Positions 1,980 to 55,848 are shown, numbered from the stretch's first letter. The stretch: 64,000 bases of DNA from Cystobasidiomycetes sp. EMM_F5 (GCA_051047955.1 JBPGPT010000006.1:372001-436000), one strand, 5' to 3'. Translations and numbers: made by a program. The notes: generated by a model not told the origin, from the sequence alone.

Positions 1980-4601
1980 ATGACTGAGCGACTGCAAGCC
2001 TCGCACTCTGCTCCTGACCTCACAGACTTGCTCCAAGCTCGCACACATCGCCCAACGCCGGAACCCTGCGAAGATGGATATCGCGATGGTTCTCCGGACA
2101 ATGACGACGGACGCTGGAAAGCCAGACTGCTAACACCCGCAGATAGTCGCTCGCCCACTCCAGAACCCATTCCGGAAGATGTCGCAAATCGACACAAACA
2201 CAATCAGACCTTCCGTTTCGCATCTGCACCACCCGAAGAATACGTTCGCTTTCGAAAAGATAGCATTCACACAGAAGACAGTGTGGACGATGACTCTGCT
2301 GCAATTCATCTCCGACGCTCAGATTTACAAATTCGAGACAGTCAGGCAACCTCTGAGCAGGAGGATCCGGATGCCGCTGATGGACACTCGCCTTCGCCCG
2401 ACCCAAATACAAGTCATGCTCCGTCAGTGCGATCAACAAGGTCTGGCATTCCTCTCGCCAAGACTGCCAAAGTCCTTCGTCACCTTCCCGCCTCGCTTTG
2501 GGAATACTTGCTTGACGAGCTCCGCGCTACCGAGTTGGATGGCTCGCACGAGCTCAAGACCGAACGCGTGTCGAATTTCTTTAGTGTACCTATGGCAGTA
2601 GAGAAGGTATGTGTGCGTGAATTATGCGAGCCAACAATGCTTACGTCTTCCAGATTATCATATTTGGCTACTTTGTGTGCTTGGACTCCTTCCTATATAC
2701 TTTCACGATCTTGCCGATACGCTTCGTGATAGCACTAAGCAGACACGCAGCCAGCTACTTTACGCAAGGCAAAAGGTATGTAAGGCGTTAATGCACAAAT
2801 CCGTAGACTAAATCGTCACTCATAGGAAATCGCTAGCAGTTTCAGCCAAGTGCGATCTCGCAAAATTCGGCCTCATCGTATGCGCTTCGGTGGTTCTGCA
2901 TCACATCACCGACGCAAGTCAGATGTACCATTTCGTCCGTGGTCAGGAGGTCATCAAGCTCTATGTCATATTCAACGTGCTGGAGGTAATGTCCAGGATC
3001 CTACCGAATATAGCGGTGTTCTCATGTATCGACCGTGGTAGATCGCGGACCGTCTATGCTGCTCATTTGGGCAAGATCTGCTGGATTCGTTATGTTCTCG
3101 CGCCACTCTCGGGCGGAGAGAAGATGGCTCACAACCTCACTTCAGGCCAGCTGCGCTTTTTGCAATGTGCACCGTTTACACCAGTGAGTGATGCTTGAGT
3201 GTTTCTCAAAATGCTGGCTGAGACCAGCTCAGTCACGCACACCCTCGTCCTGTTCTACAGTCTCGTCTCGCTGAATGTTGCAATAAATTCCTACGACAAC
3301 GCTCTTCTAACCCTCCTGCTGTCAAATCAATTTGTGGAAATCAAAAGTGCAGTTTTCAAGAAGTTTGAAAAGGAGAATCTGTTTCAAATGAGCTGCGCAG
3401 GTATGTTCAACTGCGTAATGATGAAAATGTAGACACTGAGTGGTCATTCGTAGATATCGTTGAGCGATTTCAGCTATCGCTGATGCTTGGGATCATCGCC
3501 GTCAGAAACCTGATCGAATTAAGCGGATCGACGTTCTCGTTGTTACCTACCTCCTTCGTCCCTTTTATGCCCTCTGTGTCCCTCTTGCAAACCATTCTAT
3601 CACCTGTAGTAATCGTCATATTGTCTGAAATGATGGTGGACTGGCTCAAGCATGCCTTCATCACTAAGTTCAATCACAGTAAGCGGATACGAAGCCCTCT
3701 TCTTTCTTCCCAGCCCCGAATCTGACACAAATGCAGTACGTCCCGCAGTGTATGGTCGGTTTATCGACGTACTTTGCCGCGATTTAGTCACTAGCAACGC
3801 GGTCAACCCTTCAGGCGCTAAGCAGGTTAGTCCAGAGCCATTTGCGCGAGGCGAGTCTATGCTTACACCTGCTTTCAGGCTTTCGCAGATCAGAGTCCAG
3901 CTCTTGCGCGGCGCCTGGGCTTTGCTTCTCTACCATTGGGATGCCTGATTATTCGCGTAATCGTCCAGACTTTAGAGATGCTAGCCGATACCAGTCATAT
4001 CGACGAATGTGCTCCCAAGAAGCACCGCGGTCTGCCTCCGGCACGAGGGCTATTGGGGTTCATCACTATTGGGCCAGAAAGACAAGCCAAGCTGTTCGGT
4101 TGGATAGTTTTTGTGTGTGCGGTATTCGTGCTGTGGATATGGTACGTGACGCATCGCCAGGGGAATCGCTGGCCTAACATTGCCTTCCAGTCTCATTCTC
4201 ATAAAACTGCTAATTGGGTACATTCGACCTAGCAGCGCCTTGCAAAAAATTCTGAGCTGATTCACAAGTTTCTACAGCACCAACCTCAGAGCGTTTGCAG
4301 CATCCCGATATGATGGGATGGCGGCTAGAGCTGCCGAAGACCAGCTGAACGACCGATCAAGAGCTCCTATCGGTACAAATGCTGTCGAAAAGGTAATTGT
4401 GACTGCCGGATGCTTGAGGTAACCACGCGATTTAACGGTGCTTTCGATTAGGCACACGAGGCCGAGGTTAAGCGCTTGATATCAAGCTCGGCTTTCGATG
4501 GCGTCGAACGTACGAATGGACGTTCGGGCAATGCTGCCGGGACTCCAATTAGCATGGAGAATTTGTCGAGATTCTCGATGGTGAAGAGTCGCTTGTATTG
4601 A
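1980..4601 (+). CDS. EMP65: ER membrane protein EMP65/TAPT1 (DUF747), multi-exon
   Basis: Motifs ERVSNFFSVP.AVEK, DASQMYHFVRGQEVIKLYVIFNVLE, LNVAINSYDNALLTLLLSNQFVEIKSAVFKKFEKENLFQ, SEMMVDWLKHAFITKFNH. Ends ENLSRFSMVKSRLY*. Confidence 0.93.
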
Positions 4602-4757
4602 CCACAGTCGCAACAGCAAGATTCGGTATATACACTTTTCGCAGACGTGCAAACAGTCTTATATATCGTCAACAGATAACGGTCGCTTCTATGATACACA
4701 ATTCGAAGCTCAGAACTAAATGTCCATATTCTACTTTCAATGTTCGGCTGGCACTAT

Positions 4758-7465
4758 TTAGCAGCCAGTCAAGCTGTTCTTTGGCCAGATATTCTTCGGC
4801 CATGTCGTAATATTAGGGTTCGTGTACAAGTCCATATGTTTATTGATGTAGTTTGCCGTAGGGTGCGACCTACACAAATCGCGATGTTTAGCAAGCTCAG
4901 GGCCCTACACATACGCACATGACCACTTACGCTGGATCACACGAAACGTCTACCTTGCCTTGCTCTTGCCATACGCGCACATAGTCAATGCGCAAGACTC
5001 CCGGGAACTTGAGCTTGTTGAATTGCAGGGTCTGGAACGCAGGTGACATGCCCAGATTTAGGATAAGGTACATTGGTTCCTCGCTGGAAGGGTGCATATT
5101 CAGTCAGGTGGTCGTTCTCATTCCGAACGAGACTCACGCGATCGGCCTTTGACCAACACCGGTGCGAGAGTCCGGCTTAAAGGCGCCTGCCTTGAGAGTC
5201 CACGTAGGCTTGCCATTGACGGCCCAGGTAATCTGAGAATCGGTGGTAGCGCCGGGCACATATTCATAGCCATAGCTCTGGTAGGCAACTCCATTGTATG
5301 CCGTCGTGCCGATGTTCGTCACTGCTGAACAGGATTCCTGGGTCGCAGCACCTTTCCATTCGTTGAGATAAGTGGAAGTCTTGTTATAGATGACCATACC
5401 ATTTGCCGATGTATTATCCCAAATCCACTGGTAGTCGAAAGGCGCAAGCTGGATGGATTGCGAAGCGGTTCCGTATCCTCTCCAATCGACTTGAGCCTCA
5501 ATGATGTCTATTTCTGGTGCGCCCCGACCAACGTTGTTGCTAGGACCAGGGTGATCTTGGCCTGGGCACGTACATGCACTCGCACGTTGTCCACTCAAGA
5601 TCGATAAGCGACCCCGATAATCAGGCTGGCCGGATCCGTTATACGCTGCGATAGGAGTGTTGTTCGCGAACATTTGACCTGGCAACGTCCCGACATCGCA
5701 CTCGTTGTACGAGTAGGCTAGAGGATAGGAGCTAGTTAGACATGTCGCTTATTGACCCTCTCGTCACTGCGACTCACGCCACATGCCGTCGTTCGTTGCA
5801 CCATATCCAGCACGACCTAGATTGCCCATCGACCAAGCGCCCGGCCAGAAGCCAGATGCGATAGTGTCACCGGGCAACGACATCGCAACCTCGACATACA
5901 TGCCGCCATTAAAGCAGAGCTTGTTCCATGATTGAAGCATAGCTGAGCGGAAGTTGAGATTGTGAATTGGTTGTTCAGAAAGAGTGATTTCCAGCTTCCC
6001 GTTTTTCGTAGTAGCCGCGTCGGGGTCGTACCATTCGAGATCTCGAGTTTGCCAATAATTCAGGTCAACAGCTTCCCACTTTGTAAGTCAGATAGTCAGA
6101 AAAGGCAGCGATATTGATTCGCAAGTTTCACTCACGAAGGGATCATCGCCAGGGAAAAAGGTCCGACCCTCTCGGTTAAATTCGTCCGAAAAAGCAAGCT
6201 GGTACTTGCGACCATTGAATCCGGTTCTTACAGCATTCTTGATGTCGTCAGGGGTATCCTGATCAATGAGGCTTGGCAAGCCCGGAATATCAGGAACTTG
6301 ACCAGAGGCATTGATTCCACCTAGACTGAAGCCAAAAGATGCCATCGGAACATCGTTGAACAAGTCTGTACGCAACGCATAAGTAGGTAAGTACGCACGA
6401 TCTAGTCAGGCGCAGGGGCTGAATGGGACTGACATGTATGAACGGGCCATCCAAGAAACAAGGCTATGATACCGCCAACAAGGACCATGATGCCTGCTGC
6501 GTTGACCAGTCCCCTGCCCGAAGCGGGGAAGTGCCAGAACCTATCCGAATTACCGTTCTCTAGGGTTCGAGGGTCATGCAAGAAGCTAAGATCAAGCCTT
6601 TGTTAGTATCGCCTCTTAGGTGGACAATGCAAAGTCCCTACTCGTCTTGCTCCACATTCTTGACATTCCACAGCAAAGCTGCATCCTCCATATACTTGTG
6701 ATCGGTGTATAGCGTAGGACTGCTTGCCCCATCAAGGTACGAAGAGTCTCTCCGGGGATCCGTATTTAGGGAGTATTGTGAATGGCGGATGATGGGTGAA
6801 TCGAGGCCATGTTCTGGAAATTGGCCAGAGGTGTAACCTGCCACAGGCAGTTGGTCCAGAGGGGTAGCAATATCTTCGCCGCTCGCGCTCATAGGAGTGT
6901 GCATGAGATTGACTCCGAAGGGGCTGGAGTATTGACTCTGTGGACGCCGATAGTCCGAGGATGGCGGAGAAGAAAGACTGTAGCGAGAGTATGTCTGACC
7001 AATCTCTCCTCGGGCGATAGCGGAGGAGGTCGACGCTAGACCGACTGTATTGGATGCTGGTCCCATATACAGGGACGACCTGCCGTCTGGCGTGCCCGCA
7101 GTGATTTCATCGCTGATGATTCTTGGCCGGCTGCCGCTGCCACTTCCGCTGGCACTGCCACTGGCTATGGGCGAATCGCCTTGTCGAGAGCCATGTCCAT
7201 GGGAGCTCGACGATGCAGATGCAGGATCTGACCTAACTGGCCTTGGTCCCGTACCCAAAGAGGCAGTTCCAAAGTATCCCGGGACGAACGACTGCCGCTG
7301 ATCGTCGAAGCTTGAAGCTTGCTGGCGCTGCTGATCGGATACGCTGTTACTGCTACTACCACTGCTGTTACTGTTGTTGTCGGCTAGCCTCGCATTGTTA
7401 GGCAGCGACAAAGGCTGAGTTTCCCACGGCGATGACGGCCCCGAGGCAGCTGAATGCGGTTGCAT
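4758..7465 (-). CDS. KRE6/SKN1 beta-1,6-glucan synthesis-associated GH16 protein, copy 1, multi-exon
   Basis: Ser-rich N-terminus and one TM segment, then [58 protein letters not shown]16 motif [13 protein letters not shown]. Ends WPKNSLTGC*. Confidence 0.93.
5945..6135. repeat. Near-identical duplicate of 11613-11803 (KRE6 paralog exon plus intron)
   Basis: My manual alignment gives about 7 mismatches in the first ~140 nt, and both copies have an alignable 57-nt intron. Confidence 0.85.
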
Positions 7466-8179
7466 AACGGTGGCCCGGTCGGGTCAGGGCAGGTCAGCCC
7501 CAACGAGCGTAGTACTGCCGGGTTCTGTGCGCTGGTACTGCTGGTAGTACTGTGTCAAACTTCGAGGAAGCTTCTTCCAAGACGAGAGAGTGGTCCCACC
7601 GTACTTTCGCCCTCCAAGGCTTTAGTGAAAGTTGAATTCAAATTCACGCAAGTGATCAAAAAATCAATTGCAGTCTGGTGCCGGCGGTGCTCCTCATCTT
7701 TTAAGGCGCGCGACAGCGATGGAGCTTCTGCTTTTCAGCACGTCACAGAAGACATCAGGTGTGTCGCTGCTGTTCAGATCTTTGCAGGCGTGCAGCTGCA
7801 TTCCAACACTAATTTGACAAGCCTGTCAAAGTCGTCGATCACGCGCTGGCGGCGTTTGTGCCTGGAAGCGTCAATTGCGGAGGTCTTGCTTGCTGGGAGT
7901 CCACGTAGCAAATCTATGCACTGCTTTGCATCAGTTCTATCCATCTCCCTCCTCATTCCCGTTGCAGGCTCGATTGACGATCCGGCCAGCCTTGACGCGC
8001 CTTCTCTACCAGATCTGGCAGGCAGGTGGCAAAGCCTTCACCAGATATGGCTTATCACCTATTCAGAGAGAGAGCAAGATGTACAGGCAGAAGTTTGCGT
8101 AAAGTCAGCTAATCGCACACGCTGCTATGCCTTTCTCCATACACTGACCGATATTTACTCCTGACGCGAGTCCTGCATA

Positions 8180-9859
8180 ATGCTGAAAAGTCGGCATCCG
8201 AGCCAGTCTACACAGCTGCCAGCTTACACTGAAGTGCCGACGCGTCGAGAATCTCGCTCTGCTATCCCTTCTAAATGGCGACGGTTTCTTCTAGATCCAC
8301 GCAACGTAGTTTATCCCTTGATATTACTGGGACTGCTGTATCTGGCCGCTGAAAGACATAGAGCGCGTCAAAGCGAAAGTGGCTCTGGCACCAGAACGCA
8401 GTCCGTCGAGCAGCTAGATCTGGGCGAGCATCAACATCTTCAGTCTCCGTTCCTGCATGGCGGACGGGTGCGGCCCATTGAAGTTACGACAACTCTGATT
8501 GTGACATCGACCGTGCAAGCCACAGCAACTGTGACGACAACGGCGCAGATATTGGTACCTCCAACATCGTCGCCTGCGCTGCCGATGGAGTATACCAATC
8601 GTGCCATAGCTCCGTACACTTCGCCACAGGAAGCCAAGCCAGCAGCGAGAATAATCCACGACAGGACGATCATTGGCGACGTTGATGAGGGATGGACATT
8701 GATCGCTGACTGGAAATTGTCCGATGGGAGACAATTGGAAGATCAGCGAACCTGCCTGACGTATCAGGTAAGCCAATGAAGCAATTCAATTAAACCCAAA
8801 ACACAGCTGACGCTGCCACTCACTAAAGGAACGTTTTGCGGGGTACGATGTTCCTTTGGCTGCTGATACGCCCATGCCACCGACCATCGGCGCATCCACT
8901 GCATTTCTGATGCGAGTCCGGCCAGAATGGGTTCACAAGAACACTATCAACGATGTCCACATTCCGATTTATCGATCACTCATCACTGAGCTCCAAGCAA
9001 TTGGCATCGACGTGTACTTCCTCGTCCATCTCCGTCAAGAATGGAATATGGCAGGCTGGATGGACGAAGTTCATCCTGAATTCAAAGGCCGTGTGTACGC
9101 TTTCGTTTTCGAGGAATTCACTTCGCACTTCCTTCCTGGTACGTTCCGCGATCCCGTCTATGACAATCACGTCTCGCTTTCTTCCTTTATGAATTCGACG
9201 GTCGGACGACAGTACGAATTTGCGTGGTGGATGGAGGATGATATCCGAACCACGTCCAGCTGGTCGAATTTGTTCAACTACCTCAACGCGACTGTACCAG
9301 AGTTCGAGCCGAAGCCTTTGGAGTGGGAGCTTCGCAACGATCGAACGCATCTGCCAGAAAGCAAGCTTGGACGCTATCAGCCGGATCTTTTCTTGACTTG
9401 GCTGCACGACGGCTCACCAAAAGCCGAGGAGATGACGGTTGGCGATGGAAATCGATGCTCGGATTTCGTAAAGCCAAACGAGTTGGCAAAGGCGTTCATC
9501 ATGTTCACAGGATACTCGAGAAGAATGCACGACGCGATGATGTCGTACTATGCAAGCGGTCATTCTTGCTTCTGCGAGACCTTCGTACCAACCATCGCGA
9601 AGCGGAATCGACTCAATATCCATCTCGCGCAATTGCCTCAATACATGAATCCAGCGGTCCATGATGTGGTGTAAGCTTACGTGTCCAGTCTTGAAATTAC
9701 GCGCAATTTGCTAACTGCGGTCTTCCATGCAGTCCGACTTGGGGGCACTGGCATCCAAACGCAGCTACGCCCTTCTATGAGACCTGGCAAAAGAACGCGA
9801 CGCTTTGTCGGCCAGGTCCTGCCCTACTGCACAAGGTATGGGAGGGATGGACACCTTGA
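8180..9859 (+). CDS. DUF3405-like type II membrane protein (putative glycosyltransferase-like), 3 exons
   Basis: N-terminal TM anchor and Thr-rich stem. Introns 8768-8828 and 9671-9732 restore RTCLTYQERFAGY, TAFLMRV...YRSLITEL...VYFLVHL, YEFAWWMEDDIRTT and C-terminal LCRPGPALLHKV, resembling DUF3405 blocks as I recall them. Confidence 0.7.
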
Positions 9860-10411
9860 CGAGGCCGTAGCGCGGTATAAAGCATAACTTGACGGAGAGA
9901 ACATTGGCATCACACTGCCCTGTGTATCATAATCGCGAGCTTGTATTAGCAGTATAATTGCAGTAGGAGATGGGCGTCAAAGCAAGCGGGCAAATATCTG
10001 AAGCACTCCGCAAATGCTGAATACGCAAAGATAACTGAGGAACTTGGTGCCAATGCAATGCGAAACTGAAAACGAGGAGATCCTGCCATACAGAAAAACT
10101 AATGACTCTGCAACCATTGCTGATACTACTACTTGCGAGGCATGTGAGAGTGAGCAGACAATCAATCTGGTCGTAGCGATAGGTCTCCCTTTGTCGGCAC
10201 GCCCTTAAAGCATGCTTTGTCCTCGTTGCAAAAGGAACAGGCGGTCACTGGACCTAGGTAAAAGAGAGTTTGCATTACAAAGAGTCGAATATGTCAAATG
10301 TCCATTTTGACCGTCGTCATATCTTGATCGTGATGTAGAGGAGGTGCATGTTGATAGCGAGGCAAGTGATACTGGTACATCTTGAATGTTGGCGATTCAC
10401 GCGGATGATGT

Positions 10412-13142
10412 CTAACACCCGTTCAGACTGTTTTTCGGCCAGAGGCTCTTCGGCCAAGTCACCAGATCCCTATTGGTATAGTAATCTATGTATTTGTTGA
10501 TGTAGTTTGCCGTCGGATGGGATCTGTGGCAGCGAGTTAGGGATATCCTGCATGGGAGCGGTGGCGAAAACGAGAGACTCACTCTGGATCACAGCTAACG
10601 TCGGCCTTGCCCTTTTCTTGCCAGACTCGGACGTAGTCAACACGCATAACGCCGGGGAACGATAATTTGTTGAACTGCAGAGTCTGGAAAGCTGGCGAGA
10701 TACCCAAGTTAAGAATGAGATACATAGGTTCTTGACTGCAATGGCGTGGAGGCTACCGTCAGCAAAGTGACGTACTTCGTCACGATACGAACTTACGACA
10801 TCAGCCTCTGCCCGACGAGAGTTTGTGGATCCGGCTTGAAGGCACCGGCTTTGAGCGTCCAGGTTGGCTGACCACCAATAGCCCAAGTGATCTGAGAGTC
10901 TGGCCCTGATCCCGGAGTCAATTCGTAACCATACGACTGATACGCTGCACCGTTGTATGGCGCAGTCCCTATATTTGTGACTGCTGAAGCTGATTCTTGG
11001 GTAGCGGCACCCTTCCATTCGTTCAAGTGCGTAATCGAACTGTTGTAGACTACCATGCCGTCAGATGACATGTTGTTCCAGCCCCATCGGTAGTCGAACG
11101 GTGCAATCTGAATAGATTGCGATGCCGTGCCGTATCCTCTCCAATCGACTTGGGCTTCCAGGATGTCAATCTCGGGAGCGCCTCTCCCGACCTTGTTGTT
11201 TGGTCCGGGATGCGGCTCGCCGGGGCAAGTACATGCACTCGCCCTTTGTCCAGCTAGGATCGACAACCGTCCTCGGTAATCCGTCTCGCCGGAATCGCTG
11301 AAAGACACGGTCGGCGTGTTGTTTTGGTAAATCTGCCCAGCCAATGTGCCGACGTCGCAACTGGCATAAGAATACGCTGATTGGCACAGCAATGTCAGTA
11401 TCAGAGTCGCACAAGTGCGTGTAGTCTTTGCGCTGCTATACTTACGCCACATGCCATCATTCGTGGCGCCGTAACCTGCACGACCGAGGTTACCCATAGA
11501 CCACGCGCCAGGCCAGTAGCCAGAGGCAACAGTGTCGCCGGGTAAAGAAATTGATACTTCGACGTAGAAGCCGCCATTGAAGCACAGCTTGTTCCACGAT
11601 TGGAGCATACCAGAGCGGAAGTTGAGATTGTGAATCGGTTGTTCAGAAAGGGTGATTTCCAGCTTCCCGTTTTTCGTGGTAGCCGCGTCGGGGTCGTACC
11701 ATTCCAAATCGCGAGTTTGCCAATAATTCAAGTCAACAGCTTCCCACTTTGTTGGCGGGATAGTCAGAAAAGGTAGCGAATTTGATTCAGAGGCTATACT
11801 CACGAATGGATCATCGCCAGGGTAGAATGACCTGCCATCTCTGTTGAACTCATCAGAGAAGACGAGTTGGTATTCCTTTCCATTAAACCCTTTCCGGATC
11901 CCATTCTTAATCTCGGGTGGTGTGTCTGCGTCGATGAGATTCGGAAGACCCGGAATGTCTGGAACCTGCCCAGACGAATTTGTGGCACCCAAACCCCATC
12001 CCCAGCCTGCGCCGTGCCCGGCAATGAGATCTGTGTGGATAGTATTGTTCAGTCTATACAGCTTGCCAGATATCAACGCGATCGAGGGGAAAGCAGCACG
12101 TACACGTATGGATTGGCCAGCCCAGGAACAGGGCGAGGAAGCACCCTAGCAGGACAATCAAGCCCAACACGTTTACAATACCACGAGTGGATGTGGGAAA
12201 GTTCCACCAGCTGTCCGACTTTGCAGTCTGCAATGTCCGGGGGTCGTGTAAAAAGCTGTATTGATTTTTGGGTCAGTCACAGTCACGTGCCAATTTTGCA
12301 AGACGGCCTCACTCGTCTGCCTCGACATTCTTTTCGTTCCACAATAACGACGTGTCCTCCATTGACTTTGTGCGAAAGTACTGTACCGAGTCTCGATGGT
12401 TGCCGTTTGTGCTCGAGTCGTACAGGGTGGAATCGCGAAAAGAGGGTGAGCCGACCGAGGCAGATTCGGGCATGCCGCCATACTCGGAGTACGGTCTGCC
12501 AGTATTATTGTACAAGCCTGGCGTTACCAGGGGCATATGCTCCATCTCGCTGTGTACGCCAATCTCCTCTACCTCGTTGAGCGTGCCCGCTGTCGCATAG
12601 CTGCTCGACCTGTACATGCCTGGAGGACCGAGCGGAGTCGACATGCGCTGCTGCGACGAGCCACCGGGGCTCATTGACCCGCTTGCAAGGTTTGCCAGGC
12701 TGGCCGTAGAGTATCTTGAATAGTTTGCGCCTACTTCGCCGCGGGCAATAGCAGCCGACGTCGAATCAAACCCGACGGCATTGTTTGACGACGAGCCCTG
12801 GGGTGTCATGTAGAGTGAGGACCTCGGAGGCCCAGACGTCGGTGCTGGAGGGAGTGGATGGTTGCTGTAGTACGGAGTGGACGGCGAGGAGGGCTGAAAA
12901 TGCGGCGAGACTGGGCTGAGCAGGTTTGGATTCGACGTCGCTCCAGCTAGCGGGACAGATTCGCTGCCCAAACGATCCTCCTGGTCGCTCAGACTGCCGC
13001 TGCCCGATGAGCCCCGCGACATGACACCTCTGCTGCGCTGCATGTTGTTGCTGTTGCTGCCTGAGGCTGCGATATTGTCGCCCGAACTCGAATTGCTGCT
13101 CGAGCCACTTCGAGCGCGTCCGTAAACCCGGCCACTGGCCAT
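10412..13142 (-). CDS. KRE6/SKN1 beta-1,6-glucan synthesis-associated GH16 protein, copy 2, multi-exon
   Basis: Same motifs and matching intron positions as copy 1: [46 protein letters not shown]. Ends WPKNSLNGC*. Confidence 0.93.
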
Positions 13143-13701
13143 TGTTTGAGCGGTGCGTGGACTTATGCGAGCGCAGTTGCACGTCTATGCTGCTGAGGTG
13201 GGTCGTATGGTCTGACACGTTTCGCAGAGTCGTCCAAGTCCGAGCGCCCGTATTTCGTTGCGAGCTGGCCTGAGCTGGCTGGGGCTTGCAGGATTCCGGT
13301 TCGACAGACGTGGGCAGGCTGGCTGTGCTATCGAACGACCAGACCAGACTGCAGCTTTGGTGTGCGAGTTGGTGTGCGTGTCTGCCGCTGCACTCGCTAA
13401 TTAATAATACTGCTACAAATGATTGTTATTTTCCCTTGTTATTCCCAAAACTTGCCGGGGTCTGTGCCCCTGCCTCCCTCCGGAATGTGAGCATGATCGG
13501 AGGATCCGTAGTTACAACAGGGCAACGATATGCGTGTAAACAGGTAAGTTATGCATGCTGTGATATGCGCTATGAAGCAGTCAAAACCTCGCGAGACAAA
13601 AAGTCGACGTCGAGCCTGCGATGCCGTAAAGTGCTTGTTTATCGCGAAAATCAGACGCGACTCGAGCCACGTGACGCGTATGCGAAAGATTGAATATGCG
13701 T

Positions 13702-15949
13702 CTAGGTGATGGAGTACCTATAGCACAAGTAATGAATCAGACACGCTCACGCCATCTCGCATCGCGACTTACTTTGGCCCTCCCATCGGTGGAACCCATT
13801 CAATGTCCTGCGTGGGCACTTTGATGCTGCACGTCCTTTAAAGGCGCGCAATGCTCATCAGCAAAAGCCACACACGCGGCCCATCTCCGTCTCACTCACT
13901 TGCAATGAATGCAATTCTGCGAGTTGATGACAAATTTTTTACCGTCCGCATGCTCGCCCGCTTCGCCTGGCTCCACATCCTGATATTCGTACACTGCCGC
14001 TGGACATGCATTGCCAAGCAGGCCAGCAAACGGTTTCGCATTTTGCCTTGTATGTCTTGCATAGTCTCCATCCTTGACGACAAGATGGACCGGCTGGTTC
14101 TCGGCGTGATTCGTGCCCGTTCTCGCGACGCTCGTCAGAATATCGAATGACAATTCCCCGTCTGGCGCAGGATAGTCTATCGGCTTGTAGTCTTTGGCAG
14201 GTCTAGTTGCAGCATAGTCCTCTCCCGGGTGATGGAACGTCCAGGGTACCCTCCCTTTGAAGAAGATGGAATCTAACCCGCTGTATGCTATACCGCCAAT
14301 CATGCCCAGCGGATTGTGGAAAGAAGGTCGGAGATTTCGCACCTCCTTCAGCTCCTTCATGACCGAGCTGTTATCCAATGCCGTCTGGTAGGCTGGAATG
14401 TCTAACGATTGGAACGGCTTTGTATCGTCCTCACTCTGGCTTTCTTCAGCTTCAACTTCCGGTGCAGCTTGGACGATGGCATCGAACGCCGCCTCGGCCG
14501 CTAGCATGCCAGACTTCATCGCCGTATGCGTGCCCTTGATCTTTGGCACGTTCAGGAAACCGGCGGCACAGCCAATTAGACCGCCACCAGGAAAAGTGAG
14601 CTTGGGTATCGATTGGTATCCTCCTTCATTCAGCGCACGAGCTCCGTACGCAATACATTCTCCGCCTTTCAGTATTTCAGCAAAAAACGGATGATGCTTC
14701 ATGCGCTGGAAATGGCGTGGGCGTCAGTGAATTTGCCGAGAGAGAGCTAGCACAGCCCACCTGAAATTCTCTGAAAGGCGAAATATACGGGTTCTTGTAA
14801 TCTAACCCGATGACCAGCCCCAGCGATACCATCTCGTCTTCCATATGATACAGCCAACTTCCACCGTATGTATGCCTGTTGAGGGGCCAGCCGAGCGTAT
14901 GCACAACTTTGCCAGGTACATGCTTCTCTTTTGGTATTCTCCACACCTCCTTGATTCCCAAGCCGTACGTCTGTGGGTCTTTGCCTTCGCGAAGGTTAAA
15001 GTGCTTGATGGCCTTTAGCGACAGTGACCCATGTGCACCTTCAGCAAGCAGCGTGACTTTGGCTCGAAACTCCATGCCTGGCTCAAACTGCTCTTTCGGC
15101 TTGTAATTCTTGTCGAGCCCAATGTCATTCGTAATGACACCGCATACTCTTGTCTTGTCTTCATTGTACAGCAGCTTCGCTCCAGCAAAACCAGGATATA
15201 TCTCCACCCCTAGCTCTTCCGCTTGTTCGCTCAGCCACCGTGTCAATTTGGAAAGCGAAATGATGTAGTTGCCCTTGTTGTTCATCTGGGGTGGATGAGG
15301 TAGCGGCCAAGATCCTGATGGAGTAAGATAGCGCATTGTGTCACTCGTAGCGGGCTGGTTTAATGGAGCGCCCAGTTCTTTCCAATTCGGAATCAGCTCG
15401 TTGAGTGCGGATGGCTGAATGACTGCGCCCGAGAGAATATGGGAGCCTGTAGATATATGTCAGCCAGTGACATCAACAGAGTAGGAAATTCATAGACTTG
15501 CCGACTTCGCCTCCTTTCTCCAGCACTACCACCCGGATCTCACGGTCATTCTCCTTTGCGAGCTGCATCAAGCGTATCGCAGCGCTCAAGCCGGCCGGCC
15601 CTCCGCCCACGATGCATACATCGACTTCATCGCTCGTCCGTTCAACAGCGTCCAGGTCGAATGCTTCTTCCGCATCCGCTTCGTCGACTACAGGTTGGTC
15701 GACAACGGTGGCCAAATGTCGTTTTGCAGATGTGGACAGGTGACGCGGAAGATATGCGATGCGTATGTTGTGTCGGTCTATGCAACTGGATACTGAGGCT
15801 CTGGAAGTCCGGGTGGTGAACGATGCGCTCCTCGAGCACGATGCCACACAGCTGAGATTTCTAGCTCGAACATGCAGCGACGGTTCTACGTATTTGACGA
15901 GGCACTCGATAGTTCCCTGGCGCACTCGTCTTGACAGGGTATGTTGCAT
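13702..15949 (-). CDS. ETFDH: Electron transfer flavoprotein-ubiquinone oxidoreductase (ETF-QO), mitochondrial; start codon uncertain
   Basis: DVCIVGGGPAGLSAAIRL, HILSGAVI, GARALNEGGYQSIPKL, VPKIKGTHTAMKSG and the 4Fe-4S motifs ACPAAVYE and NCIHCKTC. The last small exon ends YSIT*. Confidence 0.95.
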
Positions 15950-16110
15950 ATTTGCAGAGTTGTGCAAAGGAAAAGCGCACCTCGTTACCACAAGTTTGCC
16001 AACTCTGCCCAACATACGGAACTCCGTCGTCGCCGAAGCCGGTGGGCACCTTTTGGTCCAATCAGCGGAGTCGAGTATACGCATACGTCTAGAGAGGAGA
16101 GCTGCACACC

Positions 16111-17226
16111 ATGTCTGTACCATCTGCAGTAAGAGCGGGCAACGTCGCAGTCATCACTGGAGCTGGCAAGTCGCGGCGACTTCCGCTGCTATAGCGAGTC
16201 CATCGTCTAATATTGGAAGTACAGGCTATGGCGGAATCGGCTACGCGCTCGCAAAGACGTTTGCGGGGCACAAGATGAAGCTCGCGCTCATCGACAATTC
16301 CCAAGAGCACCTCTCAAAAGCCGTCTCGGAAATGCAGAGTGGCAGCAGCAACGATGACGTCCTGAGCGTCAAGGCAGACGTGTCCAGCTTTGAAGACATG
16401 CAAAAGGCTGCAAAGGAGGTCAATGACAAGTTTGGAAAGGTCAACGTATTGTGCTTGAATGCGGGAACTGGCGCAAAAGGCGCAAACACCTTTGATTCTG
16501 ACATGGCCTCGTGGCAAAAGGTGAGTCCCAATCGCAGGCCATCTTCACCTGGCTCACGCTATCATATAATCTGTGATCAGGTTCTCGGTGTCAACTTGCT
16601 AGGCGTCATCTACGGCAGTAATGCCTTTGTCGGCGACATGGTCAAGAGTAAGGAGGATGGGTTGGTAATCGTTACTGGCAGCAAACAAGGCATCACTTGC
16701 CCGCCTGCGTCAGGAGCAGCATACAACGTCTCCAAAGCAGGTGTCAAGACATTTACAGAGCAGCTCGCTCATGAACTGAGGGAAGCGACCGATGAACGGA
16801 TCACGGCACACTTGCTCGTCCCAGGCTGGACTTTTACAAAGGTCCGTACACCAGTGCTGATACGTGGAAGAGAGTCTAGTGTCTGACCAAGGGATGTTAG
16901 CTGACAAACGGAAGCGGAGCAACGGAGAAGCCGAAAGGAGCTTGGTATCCCCAGCAGGTCGTCGATTACGGCTTGCCAAGAATAGCCAAAGGAGAATTCT
17001 GTGCGTCTCGGCAGTGTTCGTATTTGTAAATTTTGGCTGAGACATTTCGCTCCCCACCATAATAGACATAATTTGTCCCGATGACGACGTGACAAGCGAG
17101 ATGGACAAGGCGCGGATGGAATGGTCTGCCAACGACGTTGTCCAGAATAGACCGGCTCTCTCGAGGTGGAGCAAGTCGCACAAGGATGAATTCGAAGCCT
17201 TCATGAAGCAGAAGCTGGGCAATTGA
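16111..17226 (+). CDS. Short-chain dehydrogenase/reductase (SDR)
   Basis: VAVITGAGYGGIG is rebuilt across a GC-AG intron 16166-16224. Also LNAG, TGSKQG and catalytic YNVSK. Ends MKQKLGN*. Confidence 0.9.
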
Positions 17227-34423: not shown

Positions 34424-36989
34424 ATGTCTGGGCCACTCGACCCGCTGCAGGGTCTGGCGAGCATACCATCATCCTCCTCAGCATCCTCAGCCAGCAGCCC
34501 CCCAGCTACACCGTCAAAGTCGCGCATTCTCGCGAGACCCCCGCCATATCAACGACCCCCAGTCCAGCTGCCAGTTGCGCAGCCTCAGCAGCAGCAGCAG
34601 CAGCACCTACCGCCAGCCTCGCCGTTGAGCATTGCATCAACACCCGCGTCTTCATCCTCAGCGCCCTACTTTGCTGAACCATGGGCCGCAGCGCAGTCGT
34701 CAAAGTCGCCGATGGCTCCAAGACCACCGTTGCCAGGTCAGGCGCCTCGACCAGTGTCTCCGCTGAATGGGCCATCGTTCTTTCCACAGCCGCCAGCTGA
34801 AAGTCCGTTTGCACCGGCTAGCCCAAATGCTTGGGCGACGTCGACGTCTCCACCGCGGTCGTCTACGCAGGCTGGTGGTCCCAGCACAAGCACGAGCAAC
34901 AGCACCCTCACCCCCTCTACCGCTGATAATGCAGCCAGTCCAGCTCGCTTGCACAGTCCAGGTCTGCCCCGGTCGCCCGTCGTCGAAAGTCACAGACCAC
35001 TTAGTGGCAAGAATGGGCAACTCGCAGCACAGCAATCGCAACAGCCAAGAGTGCGCCCTCCTCCATCGTTGAAGGTGCGCATTCAAGGTATTGACAGAGC
35101 AAAGAAGGAGCTTGGGATTAAGATGGACGCTTCAGTCAGATACATACCCCGCCTGACGTATCGCAACTCGACCACTGACTCTTACGTCGACAGACAAACA
35201 TCCCAACATATCACAGACAACACTCTGCTATATTCGCTCGCACATACAATGAGTTTGCAGCTCTGCACAGTGCCCTATCAGCCAATCACCCTGAAACTAT
35301 CTTACCTGCAATGCCATTACCCCAGACGTCGGCTGTCAACACCGAAGACGAAGACCGCTATCTGCGCAACATATTCCAACGCTTCATGGACCGCATCTGC
35401 CGAGACAATGTCCTCGTCCTAGATGACGAACTGCGAGCCTTCGTTGAGGCAGACTTTGGGGTGAGTATCCATACTGTCAGATTATTGCTTGGTGTCCCCC
35501 GATCTCATCATACTTACGACAGTACGCACCAATAACACGAGCCAAGAAGCTGAGAGCAGGAACCGGCTTCCTCTCGCGCTCTACAAAACCATCTCCACTG
35601 AATGATAATGGCGAGCCAGACTTTCTAGTCAGCGCAAAGATACACTCTGCTGCACTAGAGTCTGCTCTTGGAGAGACGTCAAAAGCCTTGGAGAAGGACA
35701 TCAAGGCGGGAGTTGCCGCTGCTACCGCTTATGCCGACTTGAAAGTCAACCTGGCATCTTTTGCTACGACGGAAGCGCATCTGCCGCTATCGAATGCAAT
35801 GAAGGACTTGGCAGAGACCATGCAGGCTTTGGCGGAGCTAGAGGTGGGTCAGACGAACGCAGCCGCTCTTGTGCTGGGCGACGCTCTAGCGTACGAGACT
35901 GTCGAAGCGCGAGGTGCCAAAGAGGCATTATTGCAGAGGCAGTACAATCTGGACGATCTCACGTCGAGCATAAAGACGACTATCGGTAAACGGAGAGGGG
36001 TGGAGAAATTAAGGGGAAGCAGTGCGCCAAAGAGCGATCGTGTAAACGAAGCACTAGAAGATCTCGAAGAAGCCGAAAAGCATGAACAGGCGCTACAAGC
36101 TCGCGTTCAAGCCATATCTACAAACCTTCGACCGGCTCTGCAGACTCACTTGAGGACTATGAATGAGGATCTGCTCAATACCTTCCTGGCCAATGCTCGA
36201 ACTAACCTCGCTTACGAGACCAGGAGGTTACAGCATGTCACCGCAATCAATGACAAGCTACACAAGATTCCAGATCGAGTCGTAGCCGAATCTGTCTATG
36301 TCCATCCGCCTGCTTCACACACGTCTGCGGTAGCTTCGACGAGCAGCCCCGCAAAGGCCTCAGGGTTGGGCGCTACGCGAGTAATCTTGCCAGATGCAGC
36401 CGAACCGGTGCAGCTGCCACAGCCGCAGCCAGCCGAACGTGCCGCAGTTTCCCGCTTTGCTGCTAGAGAAGCGGAAATCAAGGCTCAGATGGCCGCATCT
36501 CAAACTATCAGTCCTTCTCCTTCTCGTAATGCACTCGCAGCGCCTTCATTGCCACGAGTAACACAAATACCGTCAGCGATGCCGGTACCCGCTGCAAGCC
36601 AGTCTAGCTCGAATCGATCACAGCAACCACAACAAGGCATGGCACAGTCCATGTACATACCATCAGCACGGACAGTATTATCTTCGATTCCCGCGCAACC
36701 TGAAAGAGTAGCCTATTCGCAGAATCCATTAGGCGACGCTAGTACTGCCCAGGTCACTCCGGCAGCATCCGGATATGCTGGGCCTACAAGCGGGCAGTCG
36801 CCGCATGCGAATCTGCAAGTTAACAGGAACGCCATGACGCAGTCTGTGATGCTCCCTGGACGTAATGCCAACGTCAGCGGGTATCCTGGTCAGCCGCATC
36901 TTGGCCGCCCTGTAACGCAGAACCCAGCCGATGAGCGAAAACGGGTTGATGCGAGAAAGGCGGCCAATCTACTTGCGGGCGCTCTCTAG
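34424..36989 (+). CDS. VPS17: Retromer sorting nexin VPS17-like (PX + BAR/Vps5 C-terminal)
   Basis: Pro/Ser-rich N-terminus; PX-like LKVRIQGIDR...RTYNEF.ALH.AL..NHPETILPAMP; helical BAR region (AKEALLQR, KSDRVNEALEDLEEA); ends RVDARKAANLLAGAL*. Confidence 0.75.
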
Positions 36990-51115: not shown

Positions 51116-54100
51116 ATGCCTAAACCCTCTCTAGGCCAGAAGCTCTCTGGCAAGCCGAGCAGAAGTTACCTCGGTAGCGGGGCCTTCAGCGAGACTGGCA
51201 GCGTAGCTTCGTACCGCAGCGGCCTCGACAGCTTCACTTCCAACGACGTCTTTGGCTCCAAGCGGAAAGCCGCGGCGGCTGATGGCACCCCACCGGGCTC
51301 GCCGCTCCTTTCGACACCACAGGCAACTCCGTTGAAGAGCAGCCTGCGGTCCAAGCCTCGCGGATCAGCAGCTTCGGATGCGGGTATGGTCTATGGAGCT
51401 TCCCCGACGAGATCGAGCCCGTCAATAGCTTCTCGACTCTTTGGCGCAAGAATGGGTAGCAGCAGCGAGGCCGGGGGAAACCGCAAGTCTGTAGCTTTCA
51501 GCGAGTCGGACCCGTGGGATAGCCAGCCTGTGCCATACAATCCAACAAGCTATGCAAATGGATCCTCTTCTGGGCGTATTGGCAGTCTCTCGTTACAGAA
51601 TGTGACACAGCATGCAGCCTACAGCTCGCCTGTGCGCCGTAGGACACCTTCAATTATGTCGGACGGTGCTGGATCAGTCATATCTGATACCGGATCGATT
51701 TCCCGCAAACGCGGTAGTCGATCTGATGTGATAGTTTCGTCAATGTTGGGCACTAGTCCAAAGCCAGTCTCCCCACTCGCGACCAGTCCGAGTTCAGACA
51801 GGTGGCATAGGACACTGGGTGGAAAAGGAGATTCATTCACGCCAGGACCGCCAGCCTCATCCCGAAGCAATTATTCTTCTCGCTCGCCAAGTAAACTCAA
51901 TCAAGTCACAGACATCATACCCCGAAAGTCTTCCATGCGCAAATCACCATTCGACTTGGGCGACCCACAACCCTCGCGTCGGTACTCCATACAGCCTCCT
52001 GCTGCTGTAGCTGCCAGCGTTCCGGAGGCGCCCATCCCAAACCAGGCATCAAGTACCGCTCCCGCTCCCAATGGAACACCTCTTCTAAGCGTCCCAGAAG
52101 CAGATGACGATGCGATTTCTACGTCGTCTGCCAAATCTTCCACAAGTGGTGGACAATCAGCCGGAAAACGGAAGAAGCCCAAAGCTGCATCACTGACTTC
52201 TGCAGATGATCCGCCTCAAATTGCGAAGCATACTGCAAACGGCACGGAAAGGCCACAAGGCAGTGGTACTGTCATTGAGGAGAATATGTTTGGCAAAGAC
52301 ACCAGGACAAGTAGTACTACTGCGATGCCATCAACCGCGCAGACGTTGCATTCCGAAACATTACGCAACACGTTGCTGGCAGCCACTCCAGTCACCCGTC
52401 CCCAAATTGTCAGGGTGGGTCTGCAATTAAAGCGTCCGCCCGTTTCTTCGCTTGTGTGGCTGACATCAGATTATATTAGAACAAGTCAGCTGAACAAATT
52501 GTTGAGGCTCTCGCTAAAGCTGGCTTACTTGAGCGAGTCATGGAGGTCGTGCAGGAAGCCGATGAGGAGGGTGATACTTCGCTTGATTCGCGGCGGTCCT
52601 CAATGGCCGGCTTACCCAGGAGGAGCAGCGATGACACGATACAGGCGCCTAGTCGCACATACATGCAACAGCCTACTTTCATGGTGACCAGCCCGACTGT
52701 ACCGGATCTATCCACCGATGTCCATCAGACCCAGAATCACGACGTGCATGCCGCGACTAACGAAGCGGAATCTGTCTTGCCCTACGGCATGACGTATACG
52801 CAGCCAAAAGGCGCTAACACTGTGCCGGCTGCGTACACTGTGGTAGACAAAGTTTCCGGAGAACAGGGCACTGCTGTGGTCAACGAACCTCAGTGGGGTG
52901 TGGAGGACGCAAAGGAAGCTCTTCATATGGCGAGTGAGCCTGTTGTAAAGGCAGCCACTGCCGCCGAACAGCCCAAGCAGATCGATCAATCTCCCGCGAA
53001 AGAGTTGCACGGCATGCATGGTGCTGGAAAGGATGGCATCGACCAACAGATGCCGTCAGCATCGAGCCCTGTCATTTCGGCTGCCTCTCGCAAATCTGTG
53101 GATTCGGTGTATTCTACAAACTCGATAGGACAGGAGGCTGATGGGGAAGGCAAGCCTCAGGTCGATGTACCGACCGTCGCTCCGATATTGAATGCGAAAA
53201 ACGAATCGTCTTCGTCTAGCACAGCACCGCTCGAGACGAGCTATGCGGACGGCGAGACGCCTCAGATCGCTTCCTCAAAACCGCACGACTTGGTCTCTGA
53301 ATCGCCGTCTTCTCCGACATCCGAAACTCCAAGGCCAACGTCTCCAAAGAGTCCTCCGCGCCCCACAGCACCCACGCGAGAGGTATTGTCATTGATTGCC
53401 GCTGGATCTTTACCATTGCCTATACCAGGACTATCGCCCTTGCGTCTGGAATCACTCTCGCTCGCCAGCACGACTTCCCCAACCTTCTTCTCTCGCTCTC
53501 TCGCCGGCACTATTTTGGCACATGGTACTGCCACCCAAAGCACCGTCTCAGTACGTCTAACTTCCAATGATTGGCAGAGTCATGAGGAGATACCGGCCTT
53601 AAGTCAGCCGTTAAGTGCAGGCGACGCTGCCGATTTTCATCGGTATTCATTTGTATGGCCAATACCGCCGGGATCACGCTTTACTGCAGTATCCCTCGCA
53701 CTTCGCTTGGACGATGGAAGTGGTGGTTCTTATTGGGACAATAACGACGGTAAGAATTATTCCGCCAAAATTCCGGCTCTTCGTCGAACATCTTCCGTTC
53801 GAACTGCTTCCACTGCCAGCTTTGTATCGGTCATGCAGACGCCGCTCTCTTCTCCGCCGCTTGGCTTCAGCCGTGATGCGAGCACAGTCGAGCACGCTCA
53901 TGACACTCAGAACGCAAACATCGCCCGGATGCTTCCCAGAACGACAGACAGTGCCAGATTTCCAGCGGCGTCTCCGCCGTCGAGCAAGGACCGCGTGTCC
54001 CAGATTACGGTCGATCACAGCCAAGCTAATCAGCAACATGGTGCCACTCTTGGCGAGCCAATCGCACTAGCAGGTGAACAAATACCTGACACGCTAGAAA

Positions 54101-55848
54101 CGCTAGAAAGGTCTTCGGCGGATACGAATCCTACAAGTCAGCGAACCGCAGTCGCATCAATCGGAAATGCGGAACCTGCCCCATCAGCAGAGCTTGTCAG
54201 CGAGAGGCATAGCCATCTTCCCCATGGAGAGCGTAATGATGAAACACAAGGATTGCACCAGGCAGCAACTCCGGAGGGCCATGTACTTGGGCAGACTTCA
54301 GTAGATGGACCTTCAACAAAAAGCGCTGCCACTGAATCTGCCAAGCTACCGAACGGGCATACAGACATTGTCGATTCTAACCACCACGGGACACCTCCTC
54401 TGCTTACGTCACGCAACGCGGACCCGGACACAATCAGAAATGGCAACGAGAAGATGTCAGGTACGCAAGGCCTGCCGATGAATATGAAAGTCGGCGTGCC
54501 TGTCACAGGTACCGAAATAACAAGCAGTATCCCTGCGCCAAGATCCAATTCTGTTATGCGGTCGTTGTCGTTAGCTAGTCCGGTGCCGCAGACGCTCAAC
54601 AAAAGCTTCTGGCGTAATAATACCAATACGAAGCTTCGACAGAACCCACAGGCCCAACCCGCGCCTGCACTCAAGGGCTTTTCCAGTCCTGGCAGTATCA
54701 CATTCAATAGCATGACACCAGTCCCATACCGGATCCGGGGTGACGAGGTGCTCGTCAATGTATATGCGTCTGCAATCGACTTTTGGGATCGGACTAAAGT
54801 CGACGTCCTACGCGGAAGAAGCTCTGGGTACGGCTTCATTCCAGGTCGAGCTTTTGTGGGACGTGTCGTAGATACTGGGTCGGATGTCGATCCACGCCGA
54901 ACGAGGAAAGGCGATTTCGTCTATGGCGTTAGCGAACTGAAGACAGTAAGCGATCTCCGTTTCGTTATCGTGCTATCGTGCTAAATTTCTGATGTTGTGA
55001 CAGTCGGGTGCTCTAGCTGATTTTATGGCTGTGCATAGAGATAATCTTGCAAAAGCACCAAGCGGCGCACTCAGTCTCGAGCAAATTGCTGCCACTGCGC
55101 TTGCTGGCATTCCTGCTTACCAATGCATGGAGGAGTTGTGCAATAATCTTGTGAAAGGGTCGAAGTTGATTATACTCAATGCGCATGAGGGCGTCGGTGC
55201 CATCGCTCTGCAACTGGCTGCGGTTTTGCGACCCGAAAACGACCTGCATATTCTGGCGCACCACCCTCCGGACTTCACGAACGGCAACGCGGTCCTGCGT
55301 GGCTTGGGTGCAAACGAGACTTTAAGTGGTGAAATAACCTCTGCATTAGGGACTCTCAAAGAGTCGGGATACGATGCATTACTCGACAGCGTTGGAGGGC
55401 GCAAAGTGTACGACGCCGGGAAACACGCTTTGCGCAATGATGGCCTTTTTGGTAAAAAGTCATCTCTACACACGTGTATAGGCATTTCTGAGAATTTGCT
55501 TGCAGTCACGACTGTCGGTGATGCGCTGTCCGCTCCAAACGCTAGCGGGCAATGGAAAAAGAATATTAAGGCGCTGTTTAAACGAACAGAGAAGTCAAAG
55601 GCAAGTGCGCGAATGATTTGTTTTGCACGTCACCACTAACATCGACGTGCGGTCAGGCTATCTCATACTGGTTTCCGCAACCGGACGAGCACAATCAAAG
55701 ACTTGCTTTGGATCGATTGCGTGACATTTGCGAGCGAGGTCAGTTGCGGCCGGTCGTCAAGCGCGTGTACAAGTTTGAAGAAGGCGGAAAGGCGTTTGTG
55801 GGTCCCAACGAACAGGCCGTCGTCATGCTGCATCAAAAGACGGGATAA
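51116..55848 (+). CDS. Large protein: disordered region with RVxF motif + CBM21 domain + C-terminal MDR (GroES-like/Rossmann) oxidoreductase
   Basis: Intron 52415-52479 joins the 523-aa and 814-aa ORFs in frame. CBM21 motifs LRLESL...LAGTI...VSVRLTSNDW...YWDNNDGKNY. MDR motifs EVLVNVYASAID, GFIPGRAFVGRVV, GALADF, NAHEGVG, LDSVGG, GQLRPVV. Confidence 0.8.

Follow-up and report, generated by a model that had tools for sequence, protein, structure and literature searches.

β-1,6-Glucan is essential to the fungal cell wall, is relevant to immunity, and is a possible drug target, and in the available part of a 2026 review (PMC13604645) the enzyme that polymerizes it is described as undefined and the core catalytic machinery of its synthesis as still incompletely defined. 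The same text names UDP-glucose as the donor and Kre6/Skn1 as the most plausible catalysts, which are proposed to be transglycosylases, and the accessible portion of an eLife 2024 article (PMC11620752) gives the biochemical function of Kre6 as unknown. Haptophytes have Kre6 homologs and a β-1,6-rich glucan (PMC10543733), and Inukai et al. (PMC10543733) report that one such homolog, produced as a recombinant protein, uses UDP-glucose on its own; if this holds, a separate transferase would be less needed. Here we describe a locus of Cystobasidiomycetes sp. EMM_F5 in which a gene of the DUF3405 family (PF11885) lies between two genes of the KRE6/SKN1 family. The locus occupies positions 4758-13142 of a 64,000-nucleotide stretch of DNA (GCA_051047955.1 JBPGPT010000006.1:372001-436000), the whole of which we refer to as the window. 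A preliminary description of this DNA had proposed that the three genes form a cluster for the synthesis or modification of cell-wall glucan, and its statement that the β-1,6-glucan synthase has been elusive agrees with the available text of the 2026 review (PMC13604645).

The window is intron-bearing fungal DNA, and the region of interest holds three genes, which are listed here with the spacers between them and the principal features of the middle gene.

4758..7465, minus strand: KRE6/SKN1-family gene, copy 1 (PF03935 matches and a script-built splice model)
7466..8179, no strand: divergent spacer of 714 nt separating the start codons of KRE6 copy 1 and the DUF3405 gene (putative promoter region)
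8180..9859, plus strand: DUF3405-family gene (PF11885 match in exon 2 and a splice model)
8297..8353, plus strand: predicted signal-anchor segment of the DUF3405 protein, at about residues 40-58 (hydropathy and the N-termini of relatives)
8829..9670, plus strand: exon 2 of the DUF3405 gene, predicted core of a GT-A-fold domain (AlphaFold, Foldseek and VIA-align)
9225..9248, plus strand: WWMEDDIR, residues 329-336 of the DUF3405 protein
9860..10411, no strand: convergent spacer of 552 nt between the stop codon of the DUF3405 gene and that of KRE6 copy 2
10412..13142, minus strand: KRE6/SKN1-family gene, copy 2 (PF03935 match with E 8.1e-114 and a splice model)

Thus two KRE6/SKN1 paralogs with intact EIDxxE motifs do flank a DUF3405 gene, with every element lying where it had been placed, and the divergent promoter of about 700 nt that had been proposed corresponds to the 714 nt that separate the two start codons, a spacer whose promoter function is presumed. 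The explanation that we favor, with moderate confidence, is that these are three separate genes, that the DUF3405 protein is likely a glycosyltransferase of the secretory pathway, and that the arrangement is specific to the lineage, there being no conserved KRE6-DUF3405 module.

The evidence for a transferase comes principally from predicted structure. An AlphaFold model of the window's exon 2, built from an alignment of 22 sequences, had a pLDDT of 86.8 and a pTM of 0.87, and a model of a relative that is 46% identical (P0003), in which the C-terminal part was included, had a pLDDT of 75.6 and a pTM of 0.79. When the models were compared with the PDB using Foldseek, the top match of both was the galactosyltransferase B3GalT5 (8zwp for the window model, E 2.9e-6, probability 1.00, TM 0.48-0.53; E 2.5e-5, probability 1.00 for P0003), with TM scores of 0.38-0.53 over the two models. 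At E ≤ 0.001 there were 100 matches to the window model and 92 to the P0003 model, and those listed were GT-A glycosyltransferases together with a small number of nucleotidyltransferases that share the fold. VIA-align was run independently over 48,161 chains; in this search models that have no true match often reach a top Z of 7-8. It returned, for the window model, B3GalT5 (Z 11.7, root-mean-square deviation [rmsd] 4.0, 207 aligned), B3GalT6 (11.4), B3GNT2 (10.9), mannosylglycerate synthase (10.6), CHSY3 (10.5), AfGfsA (10.4), and Manic Fringe (10.2), such that the top seven matches were all glycosyltransferases; the list for P0003 was similar, with a top Z of 11.8. A GT-A fold had been named beforehand as the structural outcome that would support the idea of a glycosyltransferase, and both models indeed match GT-A enzymes, the best of them belonging to family GT31. 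We therefore consider it very probable, on the strength of these models, that the DUF3405 protein has a GT-A fold.

The conservation of individual residues points in the same direction. R336 and W341 show no variation in alignments of 14 and of 22 relatives, and E332 and D334 of the WWMEDDIR motif show almost none; two further acidic residues, D382 and E446, are likewise invariant or nearly so throughout the family. In the exon-2 model the E-D-D triplet directly follows the strand formed by residues 131-135. The DxD motif of GT-A enzymes lies at the end of the fourth core strand. The triplet is predicted to be the equivalent of the GT-A DxD, and the proposal in the preliminary description that WWMEDDIR is DxD-like would be consistent with the model, in which a near-invariant acidic motif stands after a β-strand where the DxD of these enzymes would lie.

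How such a protein might work can be sketched as follows. The locus would encode three lumen-facing type II membrane proteins of carbohydrate metabolism, each from a gene of its own, the outer two representing an ancient duplication within the KRE6/SKN1 family. From its N-terminus, the middle protein would have a short stretch in the cytoplasm, then a signal anchor and a stem rich in Ser and Thr, and last a catalytic GT-A domain acting in the secretory pathway, presumably in the Golgi or the endoplasmic reticulum. Its ExD (E332 and D334), situated where the fourth core strand ends, would bind a metal ion and a nucleotide-sugar. The likeliest chemistry would be formation of a β-linked product from a UDP-sugar; an inverting, β-linked chemistry is suggested because the nearest solved folds are those of inverting GT31 enzymes. 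The position of the gene between two KRE6 copies would be compatible with a role in cell-surface glycans within an arrangement peculiar to the lineage, and obligate coupling to KRE6 would not be expected.

The gene model for the middle protein is as follows.

8180-8767, plus strand: DUF3405 gene, exon 1
8829-9670, plus strand: DUF3405 gene, exon 2
9733-9859, plus strand: DUF3405 gene, exon 3

The product has 518 amino acids with no internal stop, and the two predicted introns (61 and 62 nt) have GTAAGC donors, CTGAC/CTAAC branch sites, and AG acceptors. The start codon is supported by P0021, the longer open frame of a relative that is 73% identical: the first residues, MLKSR, resemble MLKRR of P0021, where the similarity begins, and the sequences upstream are dissimilar. 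The best 17-residue hydropathy is a moderate 1.63 (residues 42-58). Eight Lys or Arg residues precede the hydrophobic segment as against three Asp or Glu residues, which fits a type II orientation, and an N-terminal hydrophobic stretch is found at the same place in relatives whose N-termini are complete (P0007, P0012, P0013, P0015, and P0017). Downstream of the anchor, in what would be the stem, 72.5% of residues 96-135 are Ser, Thr, Val, Pro, or Ala. It is therefore reasonable to predict that the DUF3405 protein is a type II membrane protein.

A further open frame is found just upstream. A stop-free frame of 236 codons (7454-8164, plus strand) fills the divergent spacer; it is in phase with DUF3405 exon 1, from which it is parted by a single TGA (8162-8164). 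As an N-terminal extension of the gene this frame is unsupported: it has no Pfam match, it is dissimilar to the upstream extension of P0021, and its codon score of 0.0 is ambiguous, training exons having scored 0.09-0.12 and a held-out frame 0.03. We also note a 34-nt inverted repeat, 71% complementary, between 4545-4578 (downstream of KRE6 copy 1) and 8245-8278 (in exon 1 of the DUF3405 gene), which probably arose by chance.

Assignment of the protein to the DUF3405 family rests on PF11885, for which the cut-off is 25 bits. Exon 2 alone (280 amino acids) scored 26.0 bits (E 4.8e-6), a marginal pass that is a lower bound for the spliced protein. A relative that is 73% identical (P0001) scored 35 bits. 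A phmmer search with exon 2 reached P0012 (E 2.5e-6), P0013 (E 2.9e-6), and P0017 (E 5e-4), which themselves score 89, 102, and 83 bits, respectively, against PF11885. In a HMMER search of 1.84 billion representatives only 16 proteins were found at E ≤ 0.001. Leaving out the window's own protein, PF11885 was detected at E ≤ 0.1 in 13 of 15 relatives, eight of which reached the cut-off, with best scores of 83-102 bits. Among named organisms, members were found in Mixia osmundae, in two genera of chytrids, and in one orbiliomycete. Word-index searches for homologs were insensitive, giving one and two matches and missing sequences of the very alignment used, and we draw no conclusion from them about the range of the family. 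No paper naming DUF3405, PF11885, or IPR021822 was found in the literature searched, in keeping with the earlier description of the family as uncharacterized.

For the flanking genes, GT..AG introns were enumerated by script, and splice models were chosen that gave an open frame and the same peptide context in both copies. Copy 1 runs from an ATG at 7465 to a TAA at 4758-4760 in seven exons (783 amino acids, a coding sequence of 2352 nt, no internal stop), and copy 2 runs from an ATG at 13142 to a TAG at 10412-10414, also in seven exons (784 amino acids). All six intron positions are identical between the two.

7465-6642, 6585-6434, 6365-6136, 6078-5778, 5717-5138, 5083-4931, 4869-4758, minus strand: exons of KRE6 copy 1
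6453..6509, minus strand: predicted single membrane helix of KRE6 copy 1, residues 301-319 (Kyte-Doolittle 19-residue mean 2.46)
5497..5514, minus strand: EIDIIE of KRE6 copy 1, a GH16-type ExDxxE motif, residue 571
13142-12313, 12255-12104, 12030-11804, 11746-11446, 11376-10797, 10735-10583, 10523-10412, minus strand: exons of KRE6 copy 2
12123..12179, minus strand: predicted single membrane helix of KRE6 copy 2, residues 303-321 (hydropathy 2.83)
11156..11173, minus strand: EIDILE of KRE6 copy 2, a GH16-type ExDxxE motif, residue 572

Exon frames searched against PF03935 (SKN1_KRE6_Sbg1; curated cut-off 30 bits) all scored above the cut-off, with 180, 165, 58.5, and 67.6 bits for copy 1 (E 6.7e-53, 3e-48, 5.3e-16, and 9.5e-19) and 381 and 71.9 bits for copy 2 (E 8.1e-114 and 4.8e-20). 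Each protein begins with a tail of about 300 residues, Ser-rich in copy 1, that is predicted to be cytoplasmic. As judged from their sequences, both copies have a type II topology (a long cytoplasmic tail, one helix, and a luminal domain) and an intact GH16 motif.

The two copies are the product of an old duplication. They are identical at 363 of 463 luminal positions (78%), at 103 of 260 positions in the tail (40%), and at 480 of 748 positions overall (64%). Among the 178 identical codons with a four-fold-degenerate third position, the third base differs in 114 (64%); this is near saturation, and the duplication is therefore old. Exon 4 (5778-6135 as compared with 11446-11803, minus strand) is 86% identical in DNA sequence, with just seven mismatches in the first 130 nt, intron 3 is 75% identical, and the other exons are 59-73% identical. 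Exon 4 and intron 3 may represent a gene-conversion tract between the linked copies. A tblastn search for a second copy or relic of the DUF3405 gene within the window found none; the KRE6 duplication left no trace there of a duplicated transferase.

Is the middle gene a partner of its neighbors? The preliminary description held that the DUF3405 protein might be a glycosyltransferase acting with KRE6, so that the clustering would be a clue to the function of the family. In its most developed form, which we consider unlikely, the DUF3405 protein would be a UDP-glucose-dependent inverting β-glucosyltransferase that primes or elongates β-1,6-glucan, the Kre6 paralogs would act on its product as GH16-type transglycosylases, and the spacer would co-regulate the DUF3405 gene and KRE6 copy 1. 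The predicted structure fits such a role: a GT-A fold with an ExD motif and inverting GT31 enzymes as nearest neighbors would provide the chemistry needed to make a β-glucoside from UDP-glucose, and the predicted type II luminal topology is common to the DUF3405 protein and Kre6. It also accords with a synthase that is undefined and a donor that is UDP-glucose in the available parts of the two articles (PMC13604645, PMC11620752). The DUF3405 gene has been kept between two KRE6 copies through near-saturating divergence. Finally, look-alikes of the DUF3405 protein in the ESM Atlas, which we treat only as a lead, are commonest in haptophytes, which have Kre6 homologs and a β-1,6-rich glucan (PMC10543733).

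The comparative evidence runs the other way. The only relative in which both families could be placed was Mixia osmundae, in which the DUF3405 gene (E5Q_01056) and the sole listed KRE6-family protein (E5Q_04597) are on different contigs in two assemblies (contigs of 77.5 kb and 212 kb, respectively, in one and of 504 kb and 666 kb in the other). PF11885 was neither fused to nor listed for any of 106 KRE6 relatives (proteins of at least 339 amino acids, E ≤ 1e-40). Three of the 106 were fused gene models, the partners being an electron transfer flavoprotein (ETF)-ubiquinone oxidoreductase (ETF-QO), an amidase together with a permease, and PX/Vps5. In 11 strains of Microbotryomycetes for which two or three KRE6 paralogs are listed, the locus tags of the paralogs were never closer than 118, a distance that assumes that tags follow genome order. 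Nor do the upstream regions of the two KRE6 copies have a word in common beyond what is expected by chance: the longest is 11 nt, a length reached in 37 of 200 shuffles. Close relatives of the DUF3405 protein are few in the databases, as is evident from the 16 representatives recovered at E ≤ 0.001. According to the accessible part of Nagy et al. (2023; PMC10282164), agaricomycetes have 21-36 GH16 genes each, about half with a Skn1 domain, and duplication and loss have been frequent; with roughly 10-18 Skn1-domain genes per genome, KRE6-type genes have many neighbors in basidiomycetes.

A further argument comes from the budding yeasts. Saccharomyces and Candida make β-1,6-glucan, and we know of no DUF3405 protein in either, which counts against a module of the kind proposed. 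We thus judge it improbable that DUF3405 is a partner of KRE6 in β-1,6-glucan synthesis, and a role of the family in that pathway is possible but unproven. More improbable still is the strongest version of the idea, that DUF3405 is the missing inverting UDP-glucose-dependent β-glucosyltransferase that starts or extends β-1,6-glucan and hands the chain to GH16 transglycosylases of the Kre6 type. Equally remote, to our minds, is its corollary that this would apply to the lineages that have DUF3405 (numerous fungi other than budding yeasts and, it may be, haptophytes), with the locus a preserved trace of the partnership. The functional half of the preliminary interpretation, in which clustering served as a clue to function, accordingly finds no support from linkage in the related genomes covered, whereas its structural half, the predicted GT-A fold, is supported.

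Several observations weigh against the explanation that we favor, a secretory-pathway transferase in a lineage-specific arrangement. The negative evidence on gene order comes from one species, Mixia, and from arithmetic on locus tags, and a cluster conserved within the taxonomic order to which this fungus belongs may exist. Scans of metagenomes gave 216 pattern stretches with a narrower DUF3405 alignment and 94 with a KRE6 alignment, none of them confirmed, and so added no related locus. Persistence of the linkage of the two KRE6 copies and the gene between them through near-saturated divergence could reflect selection on the arrangement. As to the enzyme, TM scores of 0.4-0.5, an rmsd of about 4 Å, and identities of 6-12% indicate only a distant relationship to the solved structures, and the best Z of 11.7, clearly above the background of 7-8, is a good value without being overwhelming. 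Nucleotidyltransferases that share the fold are found among the matches as well, MobA with a Z of 11.0 for the P0003 model and 9.1 for the window model and GlmU and IspD with 8.5-10.2, and so transferase chemistry is not proven. There is, moreover, no sequence-level link to any named glycosyltransferase family in Pfam, PDB sequences, or NCBIfam. Searched at E ≤ 10, 14 DUF3405 members matched only PF11885 in Pfam, and none of the 14 matched a glycosyltransferase profile. The protein has a GT31-like fold but lacks a match (E ≤ 10) to the Galactosyl_T or Fringe profiles by which membership of GT31 would be recognized in sequence. A search of PDB sequences with the family profile gave no matches at E ≤ 10, and NCBIfam gave nothing meaningful for the DUF3405 protein. 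The ESM Atlas, again as a lead only, returned unnamed eukaryotic clusters with a score of 0.95, one cluster auto-named GT25 in which 13% of members carry PF11885, and, when PF11885 was excluded, clusters of GT15 and STELLO with scores of at most 0.90.

These same findings invite the view that the protein has a GT-A-like fold and is no glycosyltransferase, being instead a nucleotidyltransferase-like enzyme or a non-catalytic chaperone or lectin of the secretory pathway that binds glycans or nucleotides. The nearly equal scores of MobA, GlmU, and IspD and the lack of membership in any glycosyltransferase family found at the sequence level are what such a protein would lead one to expect. It would, on the other hand, leave unexplained why family members vary little or not at all in the acidic motif, the Arg, the Trp, D382, and E446, why each of the seven structures that best match the window model is a glycosyltransferase, and why the predicted topology, type II and luminal with a Ser/Thr stem, resembles that of Golgi transferases. 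We regard this view as decidedly improbable. That the DUF3405 protein is a catalytically active glycosyltransferase is, as far as the models allow, probable.

What such a transferase would act upon is a separate question. It might serve another surface glycan, such as a mannan or galactan side chain, a protein O- or N-glycan, or a glycolipid head group typical of the lineage, its link to KRE6 being one of shared regulation or history. Among the nearest folds are transferases of galactose, GlcNAc, and galactofuranose, including AfGfsA, an enzyme of the fungal wall (Z 10.4-10.7), and a family that extends to chytrids, an orbiliomycete, and Mixia argues for varied acceptors. The placement of the window in Pucciniomycotina by its KRE6 relatives is also in accord with a glycan typical of the lineage. 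The proposal overlaps with the explanation that we favor, differing only in that it names a surface glycan. We hold it as a tentative possibility.

The placement in Pucciniomycotina follows from the nearest named relatives of the KRE6 luminal exon, which come from a Cyphobasidiales metagenome-assembled genome (70% identical) and then from Microbotryomycetes yeasts (50-58%). The Cyphobasidiales assembly contains two KRE6 proteins (P0036 and P0147) that are more than 90% identical to each other and lie on separate contigs (of 32.5 kb and 43.2 kb); the pair could represent two haplotypes or a recent duplication. A gene model from Rhodotorula kratochvilovae (P0070) joins ETF-QO (residues 87-616) to a KRE6 domain (817-1321), and the same order and orientation are found in the window.

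13896..16150, minus strand: ETF-QO gene, upstream neighbor of KRE6 copy 2 (PF05187, PF21162, and FAD-binding Pfam families)

This gene is context, outside the proposed three-gene module. Given that the order of ETF-QO and KRE6 is common to the window and P0070, copy 2 sits in an old, conserved position; on these gene models, ETF-QO-KRE6 microsynteny is conserved across Pucciniomycotina classes.

As to the remainder of the window, a gene for a DUF747 protein (a eukaryotic membrane protein family) lies upstream of KRE6 copy 1 at about 2000-4200 on the plus strand. A Vps5-like sorting-nexin gene (35448-36989, plus strand) lies 22 kb from the KRE6 pair, and in a gene model from Mycena chlorophos (P0104) a KRE6 domain is joined to PX and Vps5 domains, a hint of an old neighborhood. 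Of the other frames in the 64-kb window that have a Pfam annotation, none has an obvious role in the cell wall, and many long frames have no Pfam match; the sole other carbohydrate-related Pfam match is a CBM21 starch-binding module at 52480-54984. An Rfam scan of 4000-14000 gave no matches.

The interest of the locus is that it provides a concrete, testable candidate, a predicted luminal, GT31-like, and probably inverting transferase between two KRE6 genes, for a pathway whose polymerizing enzyme is undefined in the available text of the 2026 review (PMC13604645). Even if the link to KRE6 fails, the predicted GT-A fold and the conserved ExD/R/W signature offer a starting point for DUF3405, a family without a published function. 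What we have is a set of new DUF3405 and KRE6 members in an arrangement worth testing, and not yet a discovery.

How, finally, do the three genes compare with described systems? Within DUF3405 itself, all 14 aligned relatives match PF11885, as does the window protein, which is divergent at 26 bits as compared with 83-102 bits for the chytrid and orbiliomycete relatives. The closest structural counterparts of the DUF3405 protein are the GT31 enzymes B3GalT5, B3GalT6, B3GNT2, Manic Fringe, and Aspergillus fumigatus GfsA, which are its best structural matches (Z 10.2-11.7) and which share its predicted type II topology and have, as it does, a hydrophobic strand followed by an acidic triplet. In GT31 the triplet is the DDD motif. 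The DUF3405 protein differs from GT31 in that identity is 6-12%, its triplet begins with Glu, and Arg and Trp residues that are invariant come after it.

A precedent for an unassigned enzyme of the GT-A type in the organization of wall glucan is Goe1 of Cryptococcus neoformans, a single-pass, glycosyltransferase-like membrane protein of a basidiomycete whose loss alters wall glucan, according to the available part of a preprint (bioRxiv 10.1101/2023.10.24.563850). Goe1 was considered as a possible DUF3405 member and rejected, for it is described there as glycogenin-like. It is also unlike DUF3405 in being 35% identical to Cn Glg1 and in affecting glycogen and β-1,3-glucan, and the available part of the preprint mentions no connection of Goe1 with KRE6.

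The flanking genes correspond to Kre6/Skn1 of S. cerevisiae and CnKre6/Skn1, which likewise belong to PF03935, have a type II topology with a long tail and a GH16 ExDxxE motif, and occur as paralog pairs. Contiguity of such paralogs has a precedent in Candida auris, for which the accessible text of the 2026 review (PMC13604645) already describes KRE6a and KRE6b as contiguous. In contrast to KRE6a/KRE6b, the paralogs in the window are parted by an unrelated gene on the opposite strand, and they are old, with 78% identity in the luminal domain and 40% in the tail.

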